Shown piece after piece: positions 1 through 22,237 of a stretch of 22,237 nt of DNA. The notes beneath the pieces were generated by a model. That model did not search any database, was not told the DNA's origin, and saw only the letters and a list, made by a program, of their open reading frames with translations. The position numbers and the translations under genes were made by a program. Numbering within the stretch: position 1 is the stretch's first letter; each line of letters begins with the position of its first letter. The stretch comes from Capsulimonadales bacterium. Its GTDB lineage: Bacteria; Armatimonadota; Armatimonadia; Armatimonadales; Armatimonadaceae. The stretch lies in assembly GCA_033762295.1 (NCBI GenBank), contig JANRLW010000121.1, positions 1 through 22,237 of the forward strand, given 5' to 3'.

Positions 1-225
1 GACGAACGCTCCCTGCAAGAGGCGCGTCAGACGGCGTTCCATCCGCAGGGTACGCTCCCGCTCCTCGCGTCCGGTATTCCGCCGACGTTCGATCTCCAGT
101 CCTGCGGAAAAGGCCGTGGCGACCGCCGCCGATACGAAGACCATCAGCACGACGGTGATCATGAGTTCGATCAGGGTCAGGCCGGCGCGGAATCGCCGCC
201 GTGGATCGCGGGAAAAACGGTTCAT
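1..225 (-). CDS. gspJ: Type II secretion minor pseudopilin, GspJ-like (partial, 3' end outside window)
   Basis: Read manually, not in ORF track: ATG at 225 gives MNRFSRDPRRRFRAG|LTLIELMITVVLMVFVSAAVATAF, a class III signal peptide with E5. ATGA overlap with the gspI stop (222-225). Position after G-H-I. Confidence 0.75.
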   Translation of the reverse strand, partial: MNRFSRDPRRRFRAGLTLIELMITVVLMVFVSAAVATAFSAGLEIERRRNTGREERERTLRMERRLTRLLQGAFV

Positions 226-638
226 GGGCCGACCGCCCCCGTATTCGCGGTGGTGTCCGGCGGGACGAAAAGAAGCGTCGTCAGTGTCTGCTCGGCGTTC
301 TCCCGGGTCGTCGTGACGGTGACCCGGCTGATGTTCTCCGCGCCGCTCGGCTGGATATCCAGAGTCCAGGTGATCTCCGGGTACCCCCGATCCTCGAAGT
401 CGCCGTCGGTATCGGCCGCCGTCGGGTCGACGATGACGCCGATCTCATTGATCTTTTCAAGGGCCAGTCGCTGGAGCAGTTCGGCCTCCCGGGCGCGAGA
501 ATCCGTCCGGTTGATGGCGGCGATCCCGCCAAAGACGCCGACCAGTCCGATCGCGACGAGCACGACCGCGACCAGCGTCTCGATCAGGGTGAACCCGGCG
601 CTCCGCCGGGTCCGCGCGAGCGGGTTACGACGAGACAC
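222..638 (-). CDS. gspI: Type II secretion minor pseudopilin, GspI-like
   Basis: RRSAG|FTLIETLVAVVLVAIG prepilin motif; 138 aa; GTG start preceded by GAGGTGGAG; overlaps end of gspH-like gene. Confidence 0.8.
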   Translation of the reverse strand: MSRRNPLARTRRSAGFTLIETLVAVVLVAIGLVGVFGGIAAINRTDSRAREAELLQRLALEKINEIGVIVDPTAADTDGDFEDRGYPEITWTLDIQPSGAENISRVTVTTTRENAEQTLTTLLFVPPDTTANTGAVGP

Positions 639-1227
639 GCGTCTCCACCTCTCCCGCCGGCCAGCGTTCCTCGGTCTCCTCCGGCAGATCGCCCTCGATC
701 CAGCGAGGCGACCCCTCCGACGGCAGAAGGAGTGTTTTTCGATCGGGGCCGACCTGAAAGGTCAATTCGGAATCCTCCGCCGAACCGTCGGGAAAGACGA
801 CCCAGCGAAACGTCTCCGGGTCGAGACTGTCGCCGTTCTGCCGGGCCGTCTCGACTGCGATCGAATTCCCGAACGGAACGCGCTGGCGAAAGTCGGACGA
901 CGACGTATCGTTGTCCGTACGGGTACTCGTCGGACGATTATCGACGGTCCCATCGGTCGTCAGTAGTTCGGCGGTCTCGGTGTCGGTCTCGATGACCAGG
1001 GCATCGCCGTCGACCCGCAGCAGAACCGGGGTCCGGGACTCCTGCGCGCGGTTGCGGGCGATACTCGGCAGGCGCAGCAGGGCGACCTGGGTTTCGCGCA
1101 GGGCGCGGGACCGCTGCAGAGCGACCAGGTTAGGGACGATCAGGGCGGCCAGGAGCGCAACGATCGTGGTGACCACGACCATCTCGATCAGGGTGTACCC
1201 GCGAACGCCGGAACGCGGTCGTTTCAT
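625..1227 (-). CDS. gspH: Type II secretion minor pseudopilin, GspH/FimT-like
   Basis: VRG|YTLIEMVVVTTIVALLAALIVP prepilin motif; C-terminal VVFPDGS motif typical of GspH/FimT; directly follows gspG. Confidence 0.8.
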   Translation of the reverse strand: MKRPRSGVRGYTLIEMVVVTTIVALLAALIVPNLVALQRSRALRETQVALLRLPSIARNRAQESRTPVLLRVDGDALVIETDTETAELLTTDGTVDNRPTSTRTDNDTSSSDFRQRVPFGNSIAVETARQNGDSLDPETFRWVVFPDGSAEDSELTFQVGPDRKTLLLPSEGSPRWIEGDLPEETEERWPAGEVETRVSS

Positions 1228-1247
1228 CGAAGACGTCCTTCTCTCCG

Positions 1248-1691
1248 CTACTCGCTCGTGATGTCCGCCGCCTCGCCCTCGCCGCCGGGGGCGCCATCGG
1301 AACCGTAGGACTCGATGACGAAATCGCTGCCCTCGGGGCCGGGCGACTCATAGTAGTATTCGTTGCCCCACGGGTCGGTCGGCAGTTCCTTGCTGATGTA
1401 CGGGCCTTTCCAGTTGGTCGCATCGGAGGGCTGGACCCGCAGGGCGCTCAAACCCTGCTCGGTCGTCGGGAACTTATCGTTGTCGATGCGGTACTGCTGA
1501 AGCAGGCTGGACAGGGTGGCGATATCGCTGGCGGCTTTCGCACGTTTGGCATCGCCGGTACGTCCGACGACGCGGGGGACGATCAATGCGGCCAGGATCG
1601 CCAGGATCAGGATGACGACCAGCAGTTCGATGAGGGTAAACGCCCGGAGCGGTCGCCGGGACGATCGGTAGCGGAAGTAAGGACGTTGCAT
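1248..1691 (-). CDS. gspG: Type II secretion major pseudopilin GspG
   Basis: RA|FTLIELLVVILILAILAALIVP; GspG hallmarks PTTEQGL, WKGPY, DPWG, SYGSDG..GGEG..ADI. Confidence 0.95.
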   Translation of the reverse strand: MQRPYFRYRSSRRPLRAFTLIELLVVILILAILAALIVPRVVGRTGDAKRAKAASDIATLSSLLQQYRIDNDKFPTTEQGLSALRVQPSDATNWKGPYISKELPTDPWGNEYYYESPGPEGSDFVIESYGSDGAPGGEGEAADITSE

Positions 1692-1693
1692 AG

Positions 1694-2908
1694 TTATTTC
1701 ACCAGATTCTGCGCTTCAAAGATGGGCAGTAGGACCGACAGCACGACAAAGCCGACGAAGGCGCCCATGGACAGGACGATCATAGGTTCGACGAGCGACA
1801 CCAGTCGGCGCATACCGGTATCCACCTCGAAATCCAGGCTTTCCGAGACGCGTTCCAGCATCCGGGGCAGGTCGCCGGTCTCCTCGCCGATCGCGACCAT
1901 ATGGGTAAGGACGGGGGGAAACGCGCCGGCATCGCGCATTGCGGAGGCGATCGCCCGACCGGCGCGGACATCCTGCTCGACCGTTTTCGCGCTTTCCAGG
2001 AAGACCCGGTTTCCGGCCGCCAGTCCGGCAATGCGCAGGGCCTCCAGAATCGGGACGCCCCCGTAAACCAGTGTACCGAGAACCCGCGCAAAGCGCGAGA
2101 TGGTCGCCTTACGCACGACCGGCCCCAGTACCGGCGCCTGCAGAATGAAGCGGTCGCGCGTGTACGCGCCGGCCGGCGTCGCCTGCCAGAGCCGGATCGC
2201 CACCACGGACCCGACCGCGCCAAGGATCAGCGCCACCCAGTTCTTCGCCGCGAAGTCCGCGCTGTCCAGGAGAATTCGAGTCGTGATGGGCAGGTCGCTG
2301 CCCAGGTCCTTGAAAACGCCCGAAAGCCGGGGAACGACGAACGCCATGAGGAAGACGACGACGGCGAACGCGGTAAAGATCAGGATCGAAGGGTAGACCA
2401 GGGCGCTGACGATCTGACTGCGCCGTGCCACCTCTTTTTCCTGGAATTCGGCCAGCCGGCCGGCGACCTCGGGAAACTGTCCGCTCGCCTCGCCCGCCCG
2501 CAGCGTCTGCGTGTAGACATCGCTGAAATACCGGGGATGACGGGAAAGCGCCTGACTGACCGGCATCCCCGCGCGGACATCGTCGAGGGCTTCCAGAGCG
2601 ATCGCCTGCAGCATCTTGCTTTCCGACTGTTCGCCGACCACTTCGAGGACCCGGTCGAGCGGTAGACCCGCGCCCGACAGGTCGGCGAGCCGACGCGAGA
2701 ACAGCGCGAGGTCCTGCGCCGACGGCGGGCGGTTTCGCAGGGTCGAGGCATTGATCGGCGCGGCGGCGCCTTCCCGGATTTCCAGGACGTAACGGCCTTC
2801 GGCGGCCAGGTGCGCGATGGCCGCTTCCCGCGTTTCGGCTTCGACCACCCCGGAGCGTTTCGTGCCGGACGCATCGATCGCCGAGTAACTGAAGGTTTTT
2901 TGCGCCAT
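1694..2908 (-). CDS. gspF: Type II secretion inner-membrane platform protein GspF
   Basis: 404 aa; FSYSAID..G..GVVEA N-terminus; two T2SSF domains (AGEASG / IGEETG); ALVYP and LVEP TM segments; between gspE and gspG. Confidence 0.93.
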   Translation of the reverse strand: MAQKTFSYSAIDASGTKRSGVVEAETREAAIAHLAAEGRYVLEIREGAAAPINASTLRNRPPSAQDLALFSRRLADLSGAGLPLDRVLEVVGEQSESKMLQAIALEALDDVRAGMPVSQALSRHPRYFSDVYTQTLRAGEASGQFPEVAGRLAEFQEKEVARRSQIVSALVYPSILIFTAFAVVVFLMAFVVPRLSGVFKDLGSDLPITTRILLDSADFAAKNWVALILGAVGSVVAIRLWQATPAGAYTRDRFILQAPVLGPVVRKATISRFARVLGTLVYGGVPILEALRIAGLAAGNRVFLESAKTVEQDVRAGRAIASAMRDAGAFPPVLTHMVAIGEETGDLPRMLERVSESLDFEVDTGMRRLVSLVEPMIVLSMGAFVGFVVLSVLLPIFEAQNLVK

Positions 2909-4503
2909 CAGAAGGCCTCCCGCTGACAGACACGCAACACCTCTTCCGGCGTGGTGCGTCCCTCCAGAACGGCGATCCGTCCGTCGCCGAGGAGGGTTCG
3001 CATGTTCTGTGTTTTGAGAGCGTGGTCCTTCATCACGGAGGAGCTGACACGGTCGACGGTCATCCGGCGAATCGGTTCATCGACCAGAAACAGTTCGTAG
3101 AGAGCCTGCCGTCCCTTGTACCCGGCCTGCTGGCACTTGTCGCAACCGCGTCCGCGCCGGAATTGGCCGCCGTAGGTGCGAATCTCCTCATCGGTGATGC
3201 CCAGGGCGTGGAGCGACTCCGGGGAGGGGGTGTCCGGTTCGGCGCAGAAGGCGCAGACCCGGCGGACCAGTCGCTGGGCGACCGCGCCGATCAGGGAAGA
3301 GGCGACCAGGTACGGCTCGACCCCCATGTCCAGCAGACGGGTGACCGCGCCGGGCGCGTCGTTGGTGTGCAGGGTGGAGAAGACCAGGTGCCCGGTCAGC
3401 GCCGCGTGAATGGCGATTTCGGCGGTTTCGTGGTCGCGAATCTCCCCGACCATGATGACATCCGGGTCCTGACGGACGATACTGCGCAGACCGTTGGCGA
3501 AACTCAGTCCGATGTTGGCGCGAACCTGGATCTGGCTGATGCCCTTGACCTGGTATTCGACCGGGTCCTCGATGGTCAGGATGTTGGTGGTGGGCGACCA
3601 GATCTCCTGCAGGGAGGCGTACAGGGTGGTGGATTTTCCTGAACCGGTCGGTCCGGTGACCAGGATGACCCCGTAGGGAAACTTGATCAACTGCCGGTAG
3701 CGGGAAAGCATATCGGGGCGCATACCGAGTTCGGGCAGACCGAGCATGGCCGTGCCCTTGTCGAGGATACGCATAACCGCGCGTTCGCCGAAGACGGTGG
3801 GGACGATGCTGAGACGGACATCGATGGCGCGACCGGCGATCACGATCTTGATGCGTCCGTCCTGCGGCAGGCGACGCTCAGCAATGTTGAGTTCGCCCAG
3901 AATCTTCAAACGGGAAACCAGTGCGGCATGCATTCGCTTGGGCGGGGACATGACGTCGCGCAGCATGCCGTCGACCCGGTACCGGACCTTGACCTCACGT
4001 TCGTAAGGTTCGATATGAATATCGCTCGCTCCGTCCCGGACCGCCTGGGCGAAGATCAGGTTGACCATCTGCACGACGGCGGTCTCGCCCGCCATCTTCT
4101 GCAGGTCGGCCAGGTCGGTCGTCTCGTCCGCCTCGTAGGCGCCGCCGTCGCCGCTTTCGGCTTCGCCCGGAAGACCGGCCAGAATCTTTTCGAGGAAGAT
4201 CTCCTCGATCTTCTCGCGCACCAGGTTGGCGTCGGCAAGGACGGCGCGGGTCGGCATCCGGAGCAGAACGCTTAATTCGTCGACGGCGGCCAGGGTCTGC
4301 GGCGCGCCGATGGCGGTCACCAGCGTCCCGGCTTCGAGGCGCAGAGGCAGGACCCGGTTACGAAGCGCGAAGTCGCCGGGAACGAGGCGGATGGCCTCGA
4401 CGGTGGGCTTGATCTCCTCCGGATCGATGAGGTCAAAGTCGCTGCCGGAATTCGCGCCGTCCGTGGATGATGACAGAGATGGTGACAGAGGAACGGCGAA
4501 CAT
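2908..4503 (-). CDS. gspE: Type II secretion ATPase GspE (GspE/PulE/PilB family)
   Basis: GASDIHIEP, IAERRLPQDG, Walker A GPTGSGKST, TIEDPVEY, RQDPDVIMVGEIRD, TGHLVFSTLHTN, Zn motif CAFC...CDKC. Start uncertain (ATG 4503 or GTG 4539). Confidence 0.95.
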   Translation of the reverse strand: MFAVPLSPSLSSSTDGANSGSDFDLIDPEEIKPTVEAIRLVPGDFALRNRVLPLRLEAGTLVTAIGAPQTLAAVDELSVLLRMPTRAVLADANLVREKIEEIFLEKILAGLPGEAESGDGGAYEADETTDLADLQKMAGETAVVQMVNLIFAQAVRDGASDIHIEPYEREVKVRYRVDGMLRDVMSPPKRMHAALVSRLKILGELNIAERRLPQDGRIKIVIAGRAIDVRLSIVPTVFGERAVMRILDKGTAMLGLPELGMRPDMLSRYRQLIKFPYGVILVTGPTGSGKSTTLYASLQEIWSPTTNILTIEDPVEYQVKGISQIQVRANIGLSFANGLRSIVRQDPDVIMVGEIRDHETAEIAIHAALTGHLVFSTLHTNDAPGAVTRLLDMGVEPYLVASSLIGAVAQRLVRRVCAFCAEPDTPSPESLHALGITDEEIRTYGGQFRRGRGCDKCQQAGYKGRQALYELFLVDEPIRRMTVDRVSSSVMKDHALKTQNMRTLLGDGRIAVLEGRTTPEEVLRVCQREAF

Positions 4504-4645
4504 ACGGCCTACGGACGTAAGCCGGGAGCGAAAGTTCACAGAAATTCATTGACGACAAAAACGATTCTCCGACTGCTCTCCGAACTGCCGTGAAATGGCG
4601 TCCGCGGACGGTGACGTAAACGGTGACATGGAAGGGCCTTCTTGC

Positions 4646-14619: not shown

Positions 14620-15381
14620 TCAGGCGACGATTTCCGCCGCCAGAACCCGGATCAGAGTGCGGGCGATGGCGGTCTCGTTCTTCTCGGCGGTCTCGTTCGT
14701 CGCGTCGGAGAAGCGTCCCGCCGCGCGGCGCATTTCCCGTTCGGTGTTTGCGCGGGTCCGCTGGCTCAGTTCGGGCAGAATGTCCCGGTTCCAGATCTCG
14801 GCGATTCGTCTGGTGCGGGCGTCGGCCTGCTTTGCCCGACCGGTGTCTCCGGCGGCGGTCCATATCCGGGTCTCGAGGCGATTTGCCAGAGTTTCCATGA
14901 AGTATCCCATCTGGAGAGCGTCGTAGGTCGGTTCGGGGGTGCGCAGCGCCTGATTGGCCAGGGCGCGGAGCCGGGCGACCCAGAGGCGGGCGTCCTGGTA
15001 CCGGCCGGCTTCCAGACATTCGTCGGCCTCCTGCCGCATCGCCCTTCCCAGGCGCATCAGGATGGTGGTCGGCGAGTCCTCGGACATGATTCCGCTATCA
15101 TAACCGCCGGCGACAATCCGCAGCGGTTCGGTGCGCAGATGGTCGAGGATGGTTCCGGCGGCGCGTCCGTCCCCGATACGCAGCATGACAGTCGCCCGGG
15201 AAAACTCCTCGTAAACCGGCTGCGTCAATGCCAGCGTCGTTTTGGCCTCCTGGCGTGTCGGCGAGGAGAAGGAGTTTCCGGTACAGAGCGGAAGTGTGAT
15301 CATGGCCCCGACAAGGGCGGTGACGAGACCGAAAAGGGGCAAACTGCTGCGCTTGATGTGCACCGTTGTCGAATTTTGCAT
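14620..15381 (-). CDS. Hypothetical membrane-anchored or exported alpha-helical protein
   Basis: SD GGAGAG before ATG 15381; N-terminal hydrophobic segment LPLFGLVTALVGAMITLPL; helical, weakly TPR-like body. Alternative start 15438. Confidence 0.7.
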   Translation of the reverse strand: MQNSTTVHIKRSSLPLFGLVTALVGAMITLPLCTGNSFSSPTRQEAKTTLALTQPVYEEFSRATVMLRIGDGRAAGTILDHLRTEPLRIVAGGYDSGIMSEDSPTTILMRLGRAMRQEADECLEAGRYQDARLWVARLRALANQALRTPEPTYDALQMGYFMETLANRLETRIWTAAGDTGRAKQADARTRRIAEIWNRDILPELSQRTRANTEREMRRAAGRFSDATNETAEKNETAIARTLIRVLAAEIVA

Positions 15382-15650
15382 CGTTCTCTCCGAAGATACG
15401 GGACAGTAAAAGGTATGAAGGACATACCTTTTCATCATAAGAACTGATTTGACAGCGGAGCGGCCACTCGCTTACGACATATCAGACACGTTACTTCGGA
15501 TTTCGGTTGCCGTTACCGGACGATTCCAATAACAAAAAGCAACGACTTTTTGTAAACTCCGAAGAACGCGTTTCGCTTATATGTCACATTACGTACTTGA
15601 GACGTTACCGAAATTCCGAACCGCGAAAAATAAAAGGGAATTTATTCGAG

Positions 15651-18314
15651 TTACGGCTGACTGAGGGCGACGGAACAGAGCCTCTCCAGGTTTTTGCCCT
15701 GCGTTTGGCGTCGTATTCTCTCTCTATCGTCCGGGGAAAGGTTTCGTGAAGCGGCAAGGCGTGTGAAATTATTCTCACAAAAGTCAGCGTACGGAGAGCC
15801 GCTTTCGCGGAACAGGTGGGCAGCCACCGCGTAACAGAGCAGGGCGCGTTCCGATTCCCCTGACTGCTCGATGGCTTCGCCGTAGTTGTTCAGGGCGAGG
15901 GCGACGCCGAAGGGATGCCGAAGACGCCGTTCGCAGTCCAGCGCGATTGCGTAGCAACGGGCCGCCTCAGTCCAGTCCTGCGCGGCGAAGGCGAAGTTAC
16001 CCAGGTTGTTCCGTGTGGCCGCCATACCGCGCACGTCGCCCGCTCTCTCCCGAATGGCCAAGGCCTCTTTCAGCAACGAGATACCGAGCGGAGTATTCCC
16101 GTTCGGGTCCTGATACTCGGTCAGTCCTAGGTTGTTCAGCAGGATGGCATCCCCGACCGGCGAGGCTCCGATCGCCCGCCGAATCTCGAGAGCCCGGCGA
16201 AAATACGCCCGTGCGGCAGGGAAGTCCTTCTCCGCCAGCGCTATCTGACCGAACAGGTTTTCCTCGTCCGCCGAACCTTCGTCCGCATCGGCCATGGCGG
16301 CCTGCGACCGGGCCTCGTTCAGGCACTGACGGGCCTGTTCGATCTGTGAGATGTCCAGGTACAGGCCCGCCGCCTCGCGATTCAGCCGCCGGCGTAGATT
16401 GTCGGGACCGGGATCGGCCGGGGCGACGGACGCGAGACCGTTCCGGATATAATGGAGAGCCTGTTGCGGGAAGCCAAGCCGGAAGAACAGAAGCCCGAGA
16501 CTGAGACAAAGATGGCCGTGGAGGTCCGGGACAGGAATCGCGCCTTCCCGTCGTTGTCCGGCCCATAGTTCGGCCTCGTGCAGATCGGCGGAGACCGACT
16601 CCAGTGCCCGAAGCGCGCCGCCCTCGTCCGCCGTTCGCAACCGGGAAAGGTCGTCCCCGGCGCGGGCGAGAAAGTGGAGGGCATGACGTCGGCGAACCGC
16701 GTCCGCGGCCTCGGCTCCCTGTTCTCGAAGACGTTCGGCGGCGTATTCCCGCAACGACTCCGGCAGCGAATAGCGAGTGGTCTGGGTCTGACTTTCGATT
16801 TCGGTCCGTAGCAGGGAGTGGTCCCGCAGTGTTTGGGTATCCTCGAAAACATCGGGACTATCGCAGACGGCTTCGGCGTCGTCGAGGGTGAAGCCCGCCC
16901 CGGTGAAGACCGAAAGCTGGGCAAACAGGGCGCGCTGATCCTCGGTCAAAAGCTGGTAACTCCACTCGATGGTGGTGCGTAGAGCACGTTGCCGCTCCGG
17001 AAGGTCGGGGAGGCGTGCCTGCAGGAGACGGAAGCGTTCATTCAGGCGTTGCACCATCTGGCGTGGGGTCAGGGCGGTAATGCGGGCAGCCGCCAGCTCA
17101 AGCGCCAGGGGGACGCCTTCCAGACGCTGGCACAGGGTCATGATGTCCGCCTCGTTTTCCGCGTTACGGGTGAAGTTCGGCTGGCGTGCCCGGGCACGCT
17201 CGACGAAAAAGACGACCGCTGTCGGGAGCGGAAAGGGCTGAAGCTCGTAGACCGTTTCGGCCTCGAGGCCCAGGCGGCGGCGTGACGTAACCAGACAGAC
17301 CAGATCGGGCAGTCCGCGAATCAGTTCCAGAATGGCCTCTTCCCCGTCCGCCACCTGTTCCAGGTTGTCCAGCGCAAGAAGCGTCCGCCGTCGTTCGCGC
17401 AGCCAGGCGAAGACGCGTTCCCGCGCGGACGGTGGCGGCTGAAGGTCCAACCTCAGGTCGACGGCCACCTTTTGCATAAGCGCGTCCCGTGTCTGCGCCT
17501 GCGCCAGATCGCACCACCAGACCCCGCCCGGAAAGACTTCGGAACAGAGTTCCGCCACCTGAAGCGCGGTCCGTGTCTTACCGATCCCGCCGAACCCGAG
17601 CAGGGTAATCAGTCGCTTCCCCTGCGAGAGGAGGTCGGTCAAAGCAAGAACATCGTCCTCGCGGCCGACGAACGGGGTAAGCGGCAGTGGGAGATTGTGA
17701 CGGACTACCCCCAGCGTGGCGGGCGGCGGGAACCTTTCCGGCAATCCTTCGGCCAATACCTGGTGAAGGTGTACCTCACCGATCCCTTTCAGACGATGCG
17801 TCCCCAGGTCCGCGAACCGAATCCCCTCACGTATCAGGTCCTTCTCCACCAATATCCGGGTAGAGTCGGAGAGCAGTATCTGCCCGCCATGGGCCGCGCC
17901 CGCGACCCGTGCCGCGCGGTTGGGAGCGGGGCCAGCGTAGTCCGGACGACCATTGTCCTCCATCAGGGGCGATTCGCCGGTGTACATGCCCATCCGGACG
18001 AGCACCTGGTCGATAGGATTCGGCCAGGGGTAGGCAAGGAGCGCTTGTTGCGTGGCGACCGCCCAGCGTACCGCGTCGGCCGCCCCGGCAAAGGTGAGAT
18101 GGATGCCATCTCCCGTGGTCTTTACCTCGTACCCGCCGAATCGGCGAAGGTCGGCACGCAACAGGCGGAAATGTTCCAATCGAACGGATTCGAAGGCGTC
18201 ACCATACGTTTCCGAGAGGGCGGAGGAACCTACCATATCCGTGAAGACATGGGTAACTACCCCTGTCGGCGGTGGGACATACCTGGCGGAGGAATCGTTC
18301 GGGAAAATCGGCAT
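15651..18314 (-). CDS. Class III adenylate/guanylate cyclase - STAND (NB-ARC-like) NTPase - TPR protein
   Basis: Cyclase: FTDMVGS, EVKTTGDG, DYAGPAPNRAAR, GGQILLS. NTPase: PFVGRE, Walker A GFGGIGKT, Walker B LLALDNLE, VTSR, GVPLALELAAAR, WSYQLL. C-terminal TPRs with NNLG. Likely start ATG 18314 (SD GGAG); ORF open to 18377. Confidence 0.92.
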   Translation of the reverse strand: MPIFPNDSSARYVPPPTGVVTHVFTDMVGSSALSETYGDAFESVRLEHFRLLRADLRRFGGYEVKTTGDGIHLTFAGAADAVRWAVATQQALLAYPWPNPIDQVLVRMGMYTGESPLMEDNGRPDYAGPAPNRAARVAGAAHGGQILLSDSTRILVEKDLIREGIRFADLGTHRLKGIGEVHLHQVLAEGLPERFPPPATLGVVRHNLPLPLTPFVGREDDVLALTDLLSQGKRLITLLGFGGIGKTRTALQVAELCSEVFPGGVWWCDLAQAQTRDALMQKVAVDLRLDLQPPPSARERVFAWLRERRRTLLALDNLEQVADGEEAILELIRGLPDLVCLVTSRRRLGLEAETVYELQPFPLPTAVVFFVERARARQPNFTRNAENEADIMTLCQRLEGVPLALELAAARITALTPRQMVQRLNERFRLLQARLPDLPERQRALRTTIEWSYQLLTEDQRALFAQLSVFTGAGFTLDDAEAVCDSPDVFEDTQTLRDHSLLRTEIESQTQTTRYSLPESLREYAAERLREQGAEAADAVRRRHALHFLARAGDDLSRLRTADEGGALRALESVSADLHEAELWAGQRREGAIPVPDLHGHLCLSLGLLFFRLGFPQQALHYIRNGLASVAPADPGPDNLRRRLNREAAGLYLDISQIEQARQCLNEARSQAAMADADEGSADEENLFGQIALAEKDFPAARAYFRRALEIRRAIGASPVGDAILLNNLGLTEYQDPNGNTPLGISLLKEALAIRERAGDVRGMAATRNNLGNFAFAAQDWTEAARCYAIALDCERRLRHPFGVALALNNYGEAIEQSGESERALLCYAVAAHLFRESGSPYADFCENNFTRLAASRNLSPDDRERIRRQTQGKNLERLCSVALSQP

Positions 18315-18414
18315 TGTCACGATACTCCGTTTACGAAGAGGCGGAAAAGGGACGTCTCTTCCGACGTTTCGTGGCAAGGAAAAATAGCTCGAAATGCGTT
18401 AACTTGCCGTTATG

Positions 18415-18434: not shown

Positions 18435-18503
18435 AATTTTTTACTGGAATCTGATAGTGATCGTCCGGGCCAGTGCCATGACGGCCCGATTATGAGGATA
18501 CCC

Positions 18504-21452
18504 ATGCCCCTGCAAGACCGCGTTTGTGTGTCATTCCATTGCTGTTCGGTTCCGATTTCCAAACGCCATTTTCCAAGGGCGATTTTTGCCCTCTGGGTGA
18601 TTATGGTGGCGAATTCTGCGCTTGCGCAAACTACCCCGATCCAATCCTCGAACCCGCCCGGTGTTCCCAAAACCGCGACTACACCACCTACCGAGCCATT
18701 ACCTGAAGTCGCCGCCTTGATTCAAGCCGGAAAAGAGGAGGCAACAAAGTTTCAGTGGGAGGAGGCGCTGATAAAGTATCGCACAGCGTTGGAACGATCC
18801 CGAACGCTTTCCGACAAAACGGGCGAAGGTGTGGCGTTAACAAGTATCGGTATGGTTTTCGCCTCCACCGGTCAACCGGATAAAGCGTTGGAGCATTACG
18901 AACAGGCTTTACCCCTTTTGCGAATGACGGGGAGCAAACTCTTTGAAGCCAATACGCTCAACAATATTGGAAACGTTCATGCGACGACGGGGCAACCGGA
19001 CAAAGCATTGGAACATTACCGACTGGCGTTTCCTCTCTATCACGAGACGGGGAATCGTGCCAGGGAGGGGGCCGTGCTAGCCAATATGGGTGTCGTCTTC
19101 GCCGATTCGGGCCAACCGGATAAAGCGTTGGAACATTACGAACAGGCTTTACCCCTTTTGCGAATGACGGGAAGCAAACCCTTTGAAGCCAATACGCTCA
19201 ACAATACAGGTAACGTTCTCGTTGCGATTGGCCAACCCGGCAGGGCACTACAACTTTTTCAACAAGCGCTATCACTTTACCGAGAGACGGAAAATAACGT
19301 CGGGGCGGCCAACGCGCTCAACGGTATGGGTAACGTCTATGTAGCGATTCGGCAACCTGTCAAAGCCCTGGAGTATTTTCGGCAAACATTAGCATTGTAC
19401 CGGCAGGCCGGATTCAAGGCCCAGGAGGCAGGGGTTCTAGCCAACATCGGTGCCGTCCTCTCGGATATGGGTCAACCGGATAAAGCGTTGGAGCATTACG
19501 AACAGGCTTTACCTCTTTTGCGAATGACGGGAAGTAAACTCTTTGAAGCCAATACGCTCAATAATATAGGCAACGTTCATGCGTCTACCGGAAGGACGCG
19601 GAAGGCCCTGGAAAACTACGAACAGGCTTTGTCCTTCTATCAGCGGTTAGGAAATACAGCGGGTGAAGCCAACACACTCAGCGGAATCGGCAACGTCTAC
19701 CGTGACGCCGGCCAGGCGCAAAAAGCGCTGGAGTATTACCGTCGCAGTATCTCCGGAATTGAGGCCGTACGTTCTCGAATCCAAAACGATACCGAGGCAA
19801 GATCGGCCTTTCTGGAGGGCTATCTGGCAACCTATCATCTGGCTATTCATCTCCTTCTGCGCGAGGGCACTTTGCCTGCCCGACTGGAAGCGTTTGAACT
19901 GGCGCAGAAGGTCAAAGCCCGCTCCCTGCTGGACCGACTCGGCAACGCGAAAAACGACCTGGTCGCTCGACTGACGCCTGAGGAACGCGACAAAGAGGCT
20001 GGCCTGCGCGTTGCCTGCGACCGACTCAACCGCGCCATGGTCGCCGAAGGGGTCAGGAATGAAATCGGTAGCAAAAAGCGGTTCGAACAGGCAAAAAGTG
20101 CCCTGACAAAGGCCGAACAGCAACTGGCTCTCTTCCAGGACAGCCTTTACGCCCGTTACCCCGATCTGTCCGCGCGGCGGGTCGCCCGAACCGACTCCCT
20201 GACGGACATCGCCCGCGCCCTGCCCGAAGACACCGCCCTGATCGAGTTCGTCCGCCTCAATGACGGCAAAAAATTGGACCGTACCGTGGCCTTCGTCGTC
20301 ACCAGGGTGGGCAAGCGGCCTCGCCTCACCGTGTACGACACCGGACGGGATGGCAAATCCCTGACCGACCTCGCGCGCCGTCTCAACGGTGCGTGCGCCC
20401 GACCGAGCGGAAACTACATCCTTCCGGCCCGAAAACTCCATGCCGCCCTGCTCGGACCGGCGGCCAAGCCTCTCGTCGGGAAGCGCTCGTTGATCGTCTG
20501 TCCGGACGGGGACCTTTGGAAGGTGCCGTTTGCCGCGCTTCGGGACGCCCGAGGACGATTCCTGTTGCAACGCTACGATCTGTCGGTGGCGTACTCGGCG
20601 ACCGGTTGGCGGGCTGCCCGGACGGTGCGAACCATCCAGAAGCGGGCGAAGTCGCCTCTATCAGGCCGCCTCCTGACGCTAGCGGACCCGGACTTCGGAT
20701 CGGTGAACCGACTGGCCGCCGAGTTCGGCAACACGCCCGGCGTCCAGGGACAACGGCCGATCTCCATCCCGGATCGTCCGATTAGCATCCCGGATCGTCC
20801 GATTAGCATCCCTGACCGCCCGATCTCCATCCCGGATCGTGCGGTGTCGCTGGGACTGATCGAGCGCGCCGGAGCGTTGCGCGCCCTGCCCGGCACCCGC
20901 AACGAGGCGCGGGCCATTCAAAAACTGTTCCCGGACGCCACCCTGTTGACCGGCAGGCAGGCGCAGGAGTCCACCTTCAAGCAGCAGGCGCCGCGCTACG
21001 GTCGTCTGCATCTGGCGACGCACGGTTTCTTCAACGATGCCTCGCCTTTGCTGTCCTCCCTGGTGCTGGCCGCGCCACCGGACACGGGGGCCGGGAGTGA
21101 CGAAGACGGTCTGCTGACCGCGCGCGAGATCCTGGGTCTGGACCTCTCCCGTTGCGAAATGGCGGTCTTGTCGGCGTGCAGCACCGGAGTGGGCAAGCAG
21201 CAGAGCGGGGAGGGGATCGTGGGACTGACCTGGTGTCTGACGGCTTCGGGTTGCCCGAGTCAGATCGTCTCCGGTTGGCCGGTCAGCGATGCTTCCACAG
21301 CCCGCCTGATGCGCGAATTCTACGGCGGCTTGAAGCGGGGACAGAGCAAGGCTGCGTCGTTGCGTTCGGCGTCGCTGGCTTTGCTGAAGTCATCAGCGAC
21401 AAGTCATCCGTACCACTGGGCGCCCTTTTTTCTCGTCGGAGACCCGAATTGA
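18504..21452 (+). CDS. TPR-CHAT (caspase HetF associated with TPRs) cysteine protease with probable signal peptide
   Basis: About 8-9 40-aa TPR units; KARSLLD, IVCPDGDLWKVPFAAL, LPGTRNE, catalytic LHLATHG (His codon 21021) and VLSACSTG (Cys codon 21177), EGIVGL, WPVSD, HPYHWAPF.LVG. SD GAGGA favours ATG 18504 (alternative 18492). Confidence 0.93.
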   Translation: MPLQDRVCVSFHCCSVPISKRHFPRAIFALWVIMVANSALAQTTPIQSSNPPGVPKTATTPPTEPLPEVAALIQAGKEEATKFQWEEALIKYRTALERSRTLSDKTGEGVALTSIGMVFASTGQPDKALEHYEQALPLLRMTGSKLFEANTLNNIGNVHATTGQPDKALEHYRLAFPLYHETGNRAREGAVLANMGVVFADSGQPDKALEHYEQALPLLRMTGSKPFEANTLNNTGNVLVAIGQPGRALQLFQQALSLYRETENNVGAANALNGMGNVYVAIRQPVKALEYFRQTLALYRQAGFKAQEAGVLANIGAVLSDMGQPDKALEHYEQALPLLRMTGSKLFEANTLNNIGNVHASTGRTRKALENYEQALSFYQRLGNTAGEANTLSGIGNVYRDAGQAQKALEYYRRSISGIEAVRSRIQNDTEARSAFLEGYLATYHLAIHLLLREGTLPARLEAFELAQKVKARSLLDRLGNAKNDLVARLTPEERDKEAGLRVACDRLNRAMVAEGVRNEIGSKKRFEQAKSALTKAEQQLALFQDSLYARYPDLSARRVARTDSLTDIARALPEDTALIEFVRLNDGKKLDRTVAFVVTRVGKRPRLTVYDTGRDGKSLTDLARRLNGACARPSGNYILPARKLHAALLGPAAKPLVGKRSLIVCPDGDLWKVPFAALRDARGRFLLQRYDLSVAYSATGWRAARTVRTIQKRAKSPLSGRLLTLADPDFGSVNRLAAEFGNTPGVQGQRPISIPDRPISIPDRPISIPDRPISIPDRAVSLGLIERAGALRALPGTRNEARAIQKLFPDATLLTGRQAQESTFKQQAPRYGRLHLATHGFFNDASPLLSSLVLAAPPDTGAGSDEDGLLTAREILGLDLSRCEMAVLSACSTGVGKQQSGEGIVGLTWCLTASGCPSQIVSGWPVSDASTARLMREFYGGLKRGQSKAASLRSASLALLKSSATSHPYHWAPFFLVGDPN
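18870..19566 (+). repeat. Three near-identical ~97-nt intragenic TPR copies (18870-18966, 19110-19206, 19470-19566)
   Basis: Each encodes GQPDKALEHYEQALPLLRMTGSK[L/P]FEANTLNN. About 4 mismatches versus copy 1 by eye. Offsets 240 and 360 nt are multiples of the 120-nt unit. Confidence 0.95.
20754..20837 (+). repeat. In-frame 4 x 21-nt tandem repeat encoding (RPISIPD)4
   Basis: Units: CGGCCGATCTCCATCCCGGAT / CGTCCGATTAGCATCCCGGAT / CGTCCGATTAGCATCCCTGAC / CGCCCGATCTCCATCCCGGAT. Confidence 0.97.
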
Positions 21453-21514: not shown

Positions 21515-21689
21515 AATGGAAATACGCCAAAGGTAGATGAGAGGCGTGTACACCGGCCCGGCGCCGTCCCTCGCCAACCGAAATTCGAATACCTGATCCC
21601 ACGCCCCCCCGGTGGCGAAGATAAATGGCGGCAGTAATCAACGTAAATCAAGCTCCGCCGGACGCCACCGGCACGCGGGGGAATGGCTC

Positions 21690-22237
21690 ATGCGCTCGTC
21701 ACAACGAAATCTCGTTCGCCTGGCCGTATACGGGTCGTGGTGGATCGGGACGGTCCTCGCTTCAACCGCTCACGCGCAGAATCCGGTGCGTCAGGGAAGT
21801 GTCCTTTACTACACCGACGAAGCCCGGATCGATTCCGATATCTCCGGCCATCATGTCGTCATCGGGAAAAGGCCGGGCGGAAGGTTCGGTCACGCCCACG
21901 GTGACACGGACATACGGACGCCCTATACGGTCACCATCGCCGACGGAGCGACCATCACCTTCTCGACCGAAGATACGGGCTACGGGTCCGCCTCCTTCTA
22001 CAATAACAGCCGTCTGGCGATGAACGGCGGCAGTGCCGGCGGGGTGATAGGGTTCGATAACAGCGTCCTGGAGATCAATGCCGGCAGTCTTTCCTCGGTG
22101 CACGGATTTCAACAGGCCGAAATTCATTTCCGCGGCGGTCAGGCTCATTACATCGAAAGCTGGAATTCGGCGGCGGTAACGATCTCCGGCGGAAACGTGC
22201 TGAACGTTTCCGGACTGGAAACCGGATCGATCACGGT
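21690..22237 (+). CDS. Secreted beta-helix-repeat surface protein (partial; possibly PEP-CTERM-type)
   Basis: Read manually, not in ORF track: SD GGGGGA; MRSSQRNLVRLAVYGSWWIGTVLASTAHA|QNPV signal peptide; ~19-aa repeats (FYNNSRLAMNGGSAGGVIG / FDNSVLEINAGSLSSVHG / FQQAEIHFRGGQAHYIES / WNSAAVTISGGNV); open to the window end. Confidence 0.85.
   Translation, partial: MRSSQRNLVRLAVYGSWWIGTVLASTAHAQNPVRQGSVLYYTDEARIDSDISGHHVVIGKRPGGRFGHAHGDTDIRTPYTVTIADGATITFSTEDTGYGSASFYNNSRLAMNGGSAGGVIGFDNSVLEINAGSLSSVHGFQQAEIHFRGGQAHYIESWNSAAVTISGGNVLNVSGLETGSIT

Follow-up and report, generated by a model that had tools for sequence, protein, structure and literature searches.

The DNA analyzed here ("the window") is the 22,237-nucleotide (nt) contig JANRLW010000121.1 of a Capsulimonadales bacterium (assembly GCA_033762295.1). 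It encodes a TPR-CHAT protease, and the loop between strand 1 and helix 1 of the CHAT domain, loop L1 of the clan CD proteases, carries four RPISIPD heptapeptides in tandem. This array is a real and selected variant of a known protease family. It is apparently new to the literature, because no description of tandem repeats in CHAT loops or of Armatimonadota CHAT proteins was among the matches listed for the open-licence texts of PMC and for bioRxiv, supplements excluded. With a rough probability of 0.45, the array is a tethered, multivalent series of Arg sites that the protease itself recognizes and that gate the active site; as an internal mimic of the substrate, it would probably determine when the enzyme is activated.

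The array occupies positions 20754-20840 and reads (RPISIPD)x4 plus a closing Arg (20838-20840), with units starting at 20754, 20775, 20796, and 20817. It covers amino acids (aa) 755-783 of the 986-aa open reading frame (ORF) at 18492-21452(+), between LADPDF (aa 730) and LPGTRNE (aa 799). Tandem Repeats Finder (TRF) reported a period of 21, 4.0 copies, and a score of 105. The units differ pairwise at 1 to 6 of their 21 nt, and the six variable codon columns are all silent, Ser TCC versus AGC included, as the first-pass annotation of this DNA had described them. When the minimum of 7 base changes was scattered at random, the four peptides stayed intact in 0.04 to 0.07% of 200,000 simulations, a figure that flatters the case for selection since the window array was selected for its silent pattern. 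A second array, seven RPISAAS units in a Chthonomonadaceae genome (locus L003), showed 11 changes, all of them silent (P of about 1e-5 by simulation; the 7 identical units were chosen, and one divergent heptad and two dipeptide inserts were excluded). The two units of a third locus, L001, are identical in DNA and hence uninformative on codon divergence. Counted as codon variants, silent and replacement differences numbered 6 and 0 in the window heptads and 10 and 0 in those of L003. Two controls did contain replacements. A Cyanothece CHAT protein in which a 13-mer is present three times in this loop had 1 silent and 3 replacement variants, and the three copies of a 99-nt TPR segment in the window gene had 7 and 2, respectively. 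Selection on the peptide sequence of the heptad array, which the first-pass annotation had argued for, is thus well supported by all-silent divergence in two genomes and replacements in both controls. The Cyanothece array (locus L060, 1097-1213) is an independent expansion of a 13-mer in the same loop, with copies nearly identical in DNA.

Arrays of this kind are frequent among the relatives of the protein. A total of 270 proteins were collected, a set biased toward relatives of the query, and the loop could be anchored in 241 of them; two or more heptads were found in 131 proteins by a loose rule and in 126 by a strict rule. A FastTree tree was calculated from 177 of 235 cores with the loop removed (the near relatives and a random 20 of the rest), and all arrays fell into one clade of 156 members (support, 0.96). 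Within this clade, 124 proteins possess 2 to 15 units of the form R-[P/A]-[I/L/F]-x4 in loop L1 and 32 possess none or one, and none of the 21 sampled sequences outside the clade carries an array. The equivalents of the catalytic His and Cys and of Glu805 and Asp933 are present in all 124 array-bearing members. Named carriers are six Armatimonadota records (Armatimonas rosea, Armatimonas sp., an Armatimonadetes metagenome-assembled genome, two Fimbriimonadales, and Chthonomonadaceae) and one record labelled Chloroflexota. The homologs therefore do not have the unrelated, non-repetitive loops that would have spoken against the first-pass annotation, and the RPISIPD-like repeats for which it suggested a search do occur in CHAT loops, uniform within a protein and variable between lineages. 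The exact heptapeptide is not what the family keeps, since 72 different modal units were found among 126 proteins. Three clade members deviate in other ways: P0059 and P0195, the only ones without the catalytic His (Ser instead), likewise lack the array, and P0187 has many copies of an eight-residue unit, RGGIDMMS, in place of the heptad. Probable sets of clustered paralogs (P0029/P0034/P0246, P0037/P0153/P0263, and P0003/P0007) have related repeat units and mostly divergent TPRs (27 to 38% identity; 59% in one pair).

The constant feature of the units is Arg with a seven-residue spacing, not Asp. Arg at position 1 and a hydrophobic residue at position 3 belong to the definition of the unit, so that the 98% Ile, Leu, or Phe at position 3 is in part a result of this definition. 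Position 2 is Pro in 78% and Ala in 14% of the units, position 6 is Pro in 55%, and position 7, which precedes the next Arg, is Ser in 61%, Ala in 17%, and Asp in 12%. The distance from Arg to Arg was 7 in 666 of 716 intervals, and Lys accounted for 10 of about 4,300 unit residues at non-Arg positions. None of the 72 modal units contained two acidic residues, compared to 11.6 expected from column shuffles that were not corrected for kinship. Unit identity was 0.71 within and 0.34 between proteins, and identical units nevertheless occur in proteins with cores only about 60% identical, for instance, in the RPIEPPS and RPIDQPS groups. The arrays also have a polarity. Every Arg-Pro unit stood before every Arg-Ala unit in 33 of 35 mixed arrays, the reversed order was found in none, and the last Arg before the LPGT motif was followed by a residue other than Pro in 124 of 126 proteins. 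R792 of the window protein lies 7 residues ahead of Leu799, where Arg is found most often in CHAT loops, be they repeat-bearing (77 of 131) or not (55 of 104). Because ordinary CHAT loops already hold an Arg at this position, the array resembles a motif of the family that has been amplified.

The features of the gene and its product, all on the forward strand, are as follows.

18492..21452 (+), TPR-CHAT protease gene, 986 aa; ORF with matches to Pfam TPR families and CHAT (PF12770).
18492..18626 (+), probable signal peptide, aa 1-45, basic, then hydrophobic, then ALA before Gln; read by eye.
18702..19778 (+), TPR solenoid, about aa 71-429; Pfam and helices in the full-length AlphaFold2 model.
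20424..21443 (+), CHAT (caspase/separase-fold) domain, aa 645-984; Pfam and structure match.
20700..20885 (+), loop between strand 1 and helix 1 (clan CD loop L1), aa 737-798, with a length of 62 aa and predicted to be mostly disordered.
20754..20837 (+), four RPISIPD units (Arg-Pro sites); TRF, codon comparison, and simulation.
20838..20885 (+), proximal non-proline Arg sites R783-A, R792-A, and R797-A; reading of the loop.
20904..20906 (+), Glu805 in helix 1, candidate acidic residue of the P1 pocket; invariant in the array-bearing clade members, with a role suggested by topology.
21021..21023 (+), catalytic His844; kept in the same 124 proteins.
21177..21179 (+), catalytic Cys896; kept in the same 124 proteins.
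21288..21290 (+), Asp933 (WxVxD, after strand 5), candidate counterpart of the Asp that binds the P1 Arg in separase; equivalence suggested by topology.

By domain, dyad, and fold, the window protein is a member of the TPR-CHAT family. The CHAT domain scored 236 bits against a Pfam cut-off of 24, with the TPRs N-terminal to it, and the domain model matched the structures of Csx29 (Z score, 24.0; root mean square deviation [rmsd], 3.0; 286 residues aligned), separase (Z score, 23.6; rmsd, 3.1; 284 aligned), and DdvA (Z score, 21.5; rmsd, 3.5; 269 aligned). The core was confidently predicted by AlphaFold2, with a mean predicted local distance difference test (pLDDT) value of 87 to 89; in the full-length model, pLDDT fell under 50 at aa 746-792, and the domain model likewise had low values for this loop. 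The Asp933 equivalent is found in all 156 clade members and is Asp in only 4 of the 21 sequences outside. Judged from the leader, the protease is probably exported: relatives start with a short hydrophobic leader followed directly by the first helices, and a crude hydropathy test for such a leader was positive in 76 of 86 long relatives. The database record of the window protein begins at Met38 and would miss the signal peptide.

Loop L1 is one substrate-binding region of clan CD (PMC4357240). Arg-specific enzymes of this clan hold the P1 Arg at acidic positions of helix 1 and loop 5 (PMC4357240, PMC10317155); in MALT1, the acids come from helix 1, loop 4, and loop 5 (PMC4357240). Since acidic residues are invariant at the helix-1 and loop-5 positions of the array-bearing proteins, Arg specificity of the protease is likely. 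The CHAT domain of HetF cuts after Arg, at R117-S118 (PMC9457339), and separase requires a P1 Arg, to which a conserved Asp binds, while autoinhibitory loops or substrate mimics block the enzyme (PMC10317155). Clostripain and PmC11 are activated by a cut in an internal loop after Arg or Lys (PMC4850288), and in gingipain, the prodomain places an Arg in S1 (PMC4357240). In the proposed mechanism, each Arg of the array would enter the P1 pocket, either in cis or from a sister molecule. The distal Arg-Pro copies may be slow or uncut competitors that occupy the resting enzyme, and the Arg-Ala, Arg-Gly, or Arg-Asp sites beside helix 1, here R783, R792, and R797, may be readily cut trigger sites. 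A signal sensed by the TPR solenoid would align the dyad, the loop would be cut, and the site would open, with the copy number of 2 to 15 tuning the threshold or the delay of this event. The autoinhibitory pseudo-substrate loop of the first-pass annotation thus survives as a substrate mimic, which is the best available reading, but with Arg instead of the D-R junction as the site.

Several points weigh against the tethered array of Arg sites. Because 32 of the 156 clade members have no or one unit, 30 of these with an intact dyad, and because the presence of the array switches at least 19 times on the tree, the array is either dispensable or readily replaced; a co-variation test on the tree rested on 6 independent pairs and was underpowered. 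Neither AlphaFold2 model places the loop, the candidate residues of the P1 pocket were assigned by topology alone, and the polarity of the arrays may in part be one ancestral layout common to relatives. The precedents, HetF, separase, clostripain/PmC11, and gingipain, act via other loops or domains and not via L1. Craspases cut after Met or Leu (PMC11506125), so that a CHAT domain is no guarantee of Arg specificity, and clostripain is able to cut an Arg-Pro bond (PMC13709457), so that an Arg-Pro site is not necessarily a decoy.

Alternatively, the units may remain uncut and act as short linear motifs for multivalent docking, gathering copies of a partner, or of the protein's own TPR, outside the cytoplasm. 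Disordered, Pro-rich units with a fixed period would suit such a role, as would their identity between proteins with cores about 60% identical, and Arg-Pro bonds resist many proteases. Docking is nevertheless unlikely, although it is the rival that survives best. It leaves the polarity from Arg-Pro to Arg-Ala unexplained, and all 50 matches of a profile of the repeat alone were clan CD proteases. The common unit of three probable paralogs whose TPR parts are only about 31% identical speaks against the own TPR as the docking partner. A likeness of the units to SH3 ligands was rejected, as their prolines do not fall into the required register.

Of the 50 profile matches, 49 were CHAT proteins, and the remaining one was P0268, a WD40-Ig-caspase (C14) protein with five RAITADS-like units in its WD40 region (aa 135-170), three of which occur verbatim in CHAT loops. 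The motif is therefore portable, and P0268 is a candidate for a cascade partner or for a module swap. Absence from other families carries little weight, since the profile search, which covered proteins of 71 to 2000 aa and 8,000 candidates, recovered 13 of 28 database seed proteins. No repeat was found in 474 candidate proteins shorter than 542 aa by a single-sequence search, which is insensitive and leaves room for stand-alone precursors. In addition, P0268 contains the motifs HG and DTCH, and an Asp precedes its Cys by two residues. This protein speaks for the array as a bait region, which would be cut by a different protease with Arg specificity, whether foreign or a caspase-like sister, to activate the enzyme in a cascade, and a CHAT-to-caspase cascade is known (10.1101/2023.06.23.546230). 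P0268 is, however, a single record, incomplete at the N terminus and without genomic context, and no gene for a partner protease was seen in the window or in L003, which makes a bait improbable.

Just as improbable is a built-in signal, in which cuts after every Arg would release the lineage-specific heptapeptide in several copies outside the cell, to be imported and read by the TPR of a neighbouring gene product. The neighbour stands head-to-head with the protease gene.

15651..18377 (-), nucleotide cyclase-NB-ARC-TPR gene, a possible partner; Pfam.

The first-pass annotation had considered release of RPISIPD; the product would instead be PISIPDR, because acidic residues are kept at the positions that hold the P1 Arg in Arg-specific clan CD enzymes and HetF cuts after Arg. 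The export signal on the protease and the lineage-specific units, uniform within each protein, agree with a signal, and so does the pairing of genes. L003 has the same head-to-head arrangement, with its cyclase-NB-ARC-TPR gene at 3-2132(-) (43.7% identity over 730 aa), and this neighbour is missing from L002, a clade member without repeat. Repeated autoinducers in one precursor are known from Phr (PMC5199041), and the Arg-Pro cutting by clostripain (PMC13709457) would allow release. On the other side, the pairing rests on two informative loci, the window and L003, with L001 too short to show the neighbour; a genome scan gave at least 610 stretches, mostly distant CHAT loci, 80 loci were taken, and 2 of the 46 with a readable loop had arrays. 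The neighbour protein showed Pfam matches for cyclase, NB-ARC, and TPR and none for RNPP_C or RRNPP. A complex prediction of its TPR region (349 aa) with the 40-aa repeat, both without alignments, scored 0.02 and speaks neither for nor against an interaction. Many arrays are mixtures of units. Import would be required, because the protease appears to be exported and the cyclase cytoplasmic, and caspase genes are known to neighbour STAND ATPase genes in systems that involve no peptides (PMC8195603). From the heptapeptide signal of the first-pass annotation, the gene pairing has gained one further genome, and the separate compartments leave the whole idea weak. A combination with the tethered array, a protease-pheromone device, is of similarly low probability: a cue would lead to cuts at the proximal Arg and then to a slow Arg-Pro fuse, the units would set both the delay and the dose of PISIPDR, and the cyclase-NB-ARC-TPR protein would read the peptide and form a cyclic nucleotide. 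The cyclase motifs FTD, GDG, and NRAARV look intact in the genes of the window and of L003.

A tolerated spacer is an improbable explanation and ranks just behind these. Here, slippage would expand a permissive loop in which only the general composition is selected. CHAT loops L1 do range in length from about 5 to more than 130 aa across CHAT proteins, an unrelated 13-mer repeat occupies the same loop in Cyanothece, and the copy number varies freely, with frequent loss of the array. All-silent divergence in two genomes, unlike the controls, does not fit a mere spacer, nor do the strict period, the near absence of Lys, the polarity, and the lack of modal units with two acidic residues (kinship again uncorrected). 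Caspase-like cutting after Asp at each D-R junction, proposed in the first-pass annotation and in accord with the Asp at the end of all four window units, is very improbable: Asp-specific caspases carry an Arg in helix 1, forming a basic P1 pocket, but an invariant Glu is found here, the acid at loop 5 is kept as well, and Ser or Ala, far more often than Asp, precedes the next Arg.

Other observations concern the protease and its surroundings. Near-identical 99-nt TPR segments (5 to 7 differences) at 18870-18968, 19110-19208, and 19470-19568 point to a recent duplication within the sensor region. The third-position GC content is 0.67 in the protease gene, 0.72 in the cyclase gene, and 0.77 to 0.81 in four housekeeping-type genes of the window. 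The protease itself gave a sub-threshold RNPP_C match in Pfam (25 versus 26.5 bits). A phmmer search of PDB sequences with the CHAT region gave no match, and another PDB search gave only TPR matches among the best 60 of 350. The ESM Atlas search yielded generic CHAT clusters, and a plasmid search yielded only distant CHAT proteins, the best with about 34% among the 25 of 186 matches listed. No common DNA motif was prominent between the two divergent intergenic regions, and Rfam and tRNA scans were empty. The window ends 0.8 kb downstream of the protease gene; the ORF located there, 21612-22235(+), is open at the window end, has a probable leader and short beta-type repeats, and gave no Pfam or NCBIfam match and Atlas matches below 0.9. 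A 272-aa ORF just downstream of the cyclase gene, 14620-15438(-), had no match in Pfam, NCBIfam, or PADLOC and no counterpart in the 80 loci. Region 222-4539(-) presumably encodes a type II secretion or pilin-like cluster (ATPase, membrane platform protein, three prepilin-like genes), as assigned by motifs.

TPR-CHAT proteins occur widely, and knowledge of them is scarce (PMC11506125). The clade described here appears to spell its own recognition motif repeatedly in an active-site loop, which would provide a handle on specificity (Arg-[Pro/Ala]-hydrophobic) and on activation, and a natural series with 0 to 15 copies and 72 unit variants is at hand. If the copy number tunes the threshold, this would be a repeat-encoded dial on a caspase-like enzyme; should the peptides be released and read, the protease would both produce and carry a peptide signal of its own.

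Among known systems, Csx29 of Craspase, the periplasmic domain of DdvA, and HetF share TPR plus CHAT (PF12770), the His-Cys dyad, and the fold with the window protein (Z scores, 21 to 24); DdvA is also extracytoplasmic and a proposed self-cutter. The source passages on these three TPR-CHAT proteases mention no tandem repeat in loop L1. Csx29 of Craspase is encoded with Cas7-11 in a type III-E locus. The protein is not such a Csx29 by the features tested, since no cas family was found among the 12 ORFs scanned with Pfam, of 77 listed for the window, and PADLOC returned generic TPR models only. These 12 ORFs contained no sigma factor either. The protein is likewise not an anti-sigma factor of the DdvA type by the features tested, because its N terminus looks like a signal peptide, and its relatives have a short hydrophobic leader instead of a cytoplasmic zinc anti-sigma domain and a membrane helix before TPR-CHAT. 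Of the two neighbours, either of which could be an extracytoplasmic function (ECF) sigma gene in a DdvA-type locus, the upstream one encodes the cyclase-NB-ARC-TPR protein, and the downstream ORF, cut by the window end, matched no family. Membership in the Asp-specific caspases (C14A) was rejected on account of the helix-1 Glu (124 of 124) and of Asp in 12% of the units. With Phr and NprX of the RRNPP systems, the window shares a probably exported chain, tandem short lineage-variable peptides, and an adjacent TPR gene. The repeats are here, however, inside a 986-aa protease, and the neighbour is a cyclase-NB-ARC protein and not an RRNPP regulator; with no RNPP_C match in the neighbour, this is not an RRNPP system by the features tested. 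Separase has the same fold (Z score, 23.6), a strict P1 Arg bound by a conserved Asp, and regulation by substrate mimics. Clostripain and PmC11 (C11) and the gingipain prodomain provide further examples from clan CD of a restraint by an own Arg- or Lys-bearing segment that is relieved by cutting, and clostripain even excises a nonapeptide between two Arg residues. These enzymes have one or two such sites, located either in a prodomain or in a loop that follows the catalytic His, whereas the proteases of this clade possess 2 to 15 periodic sites in loop L1.

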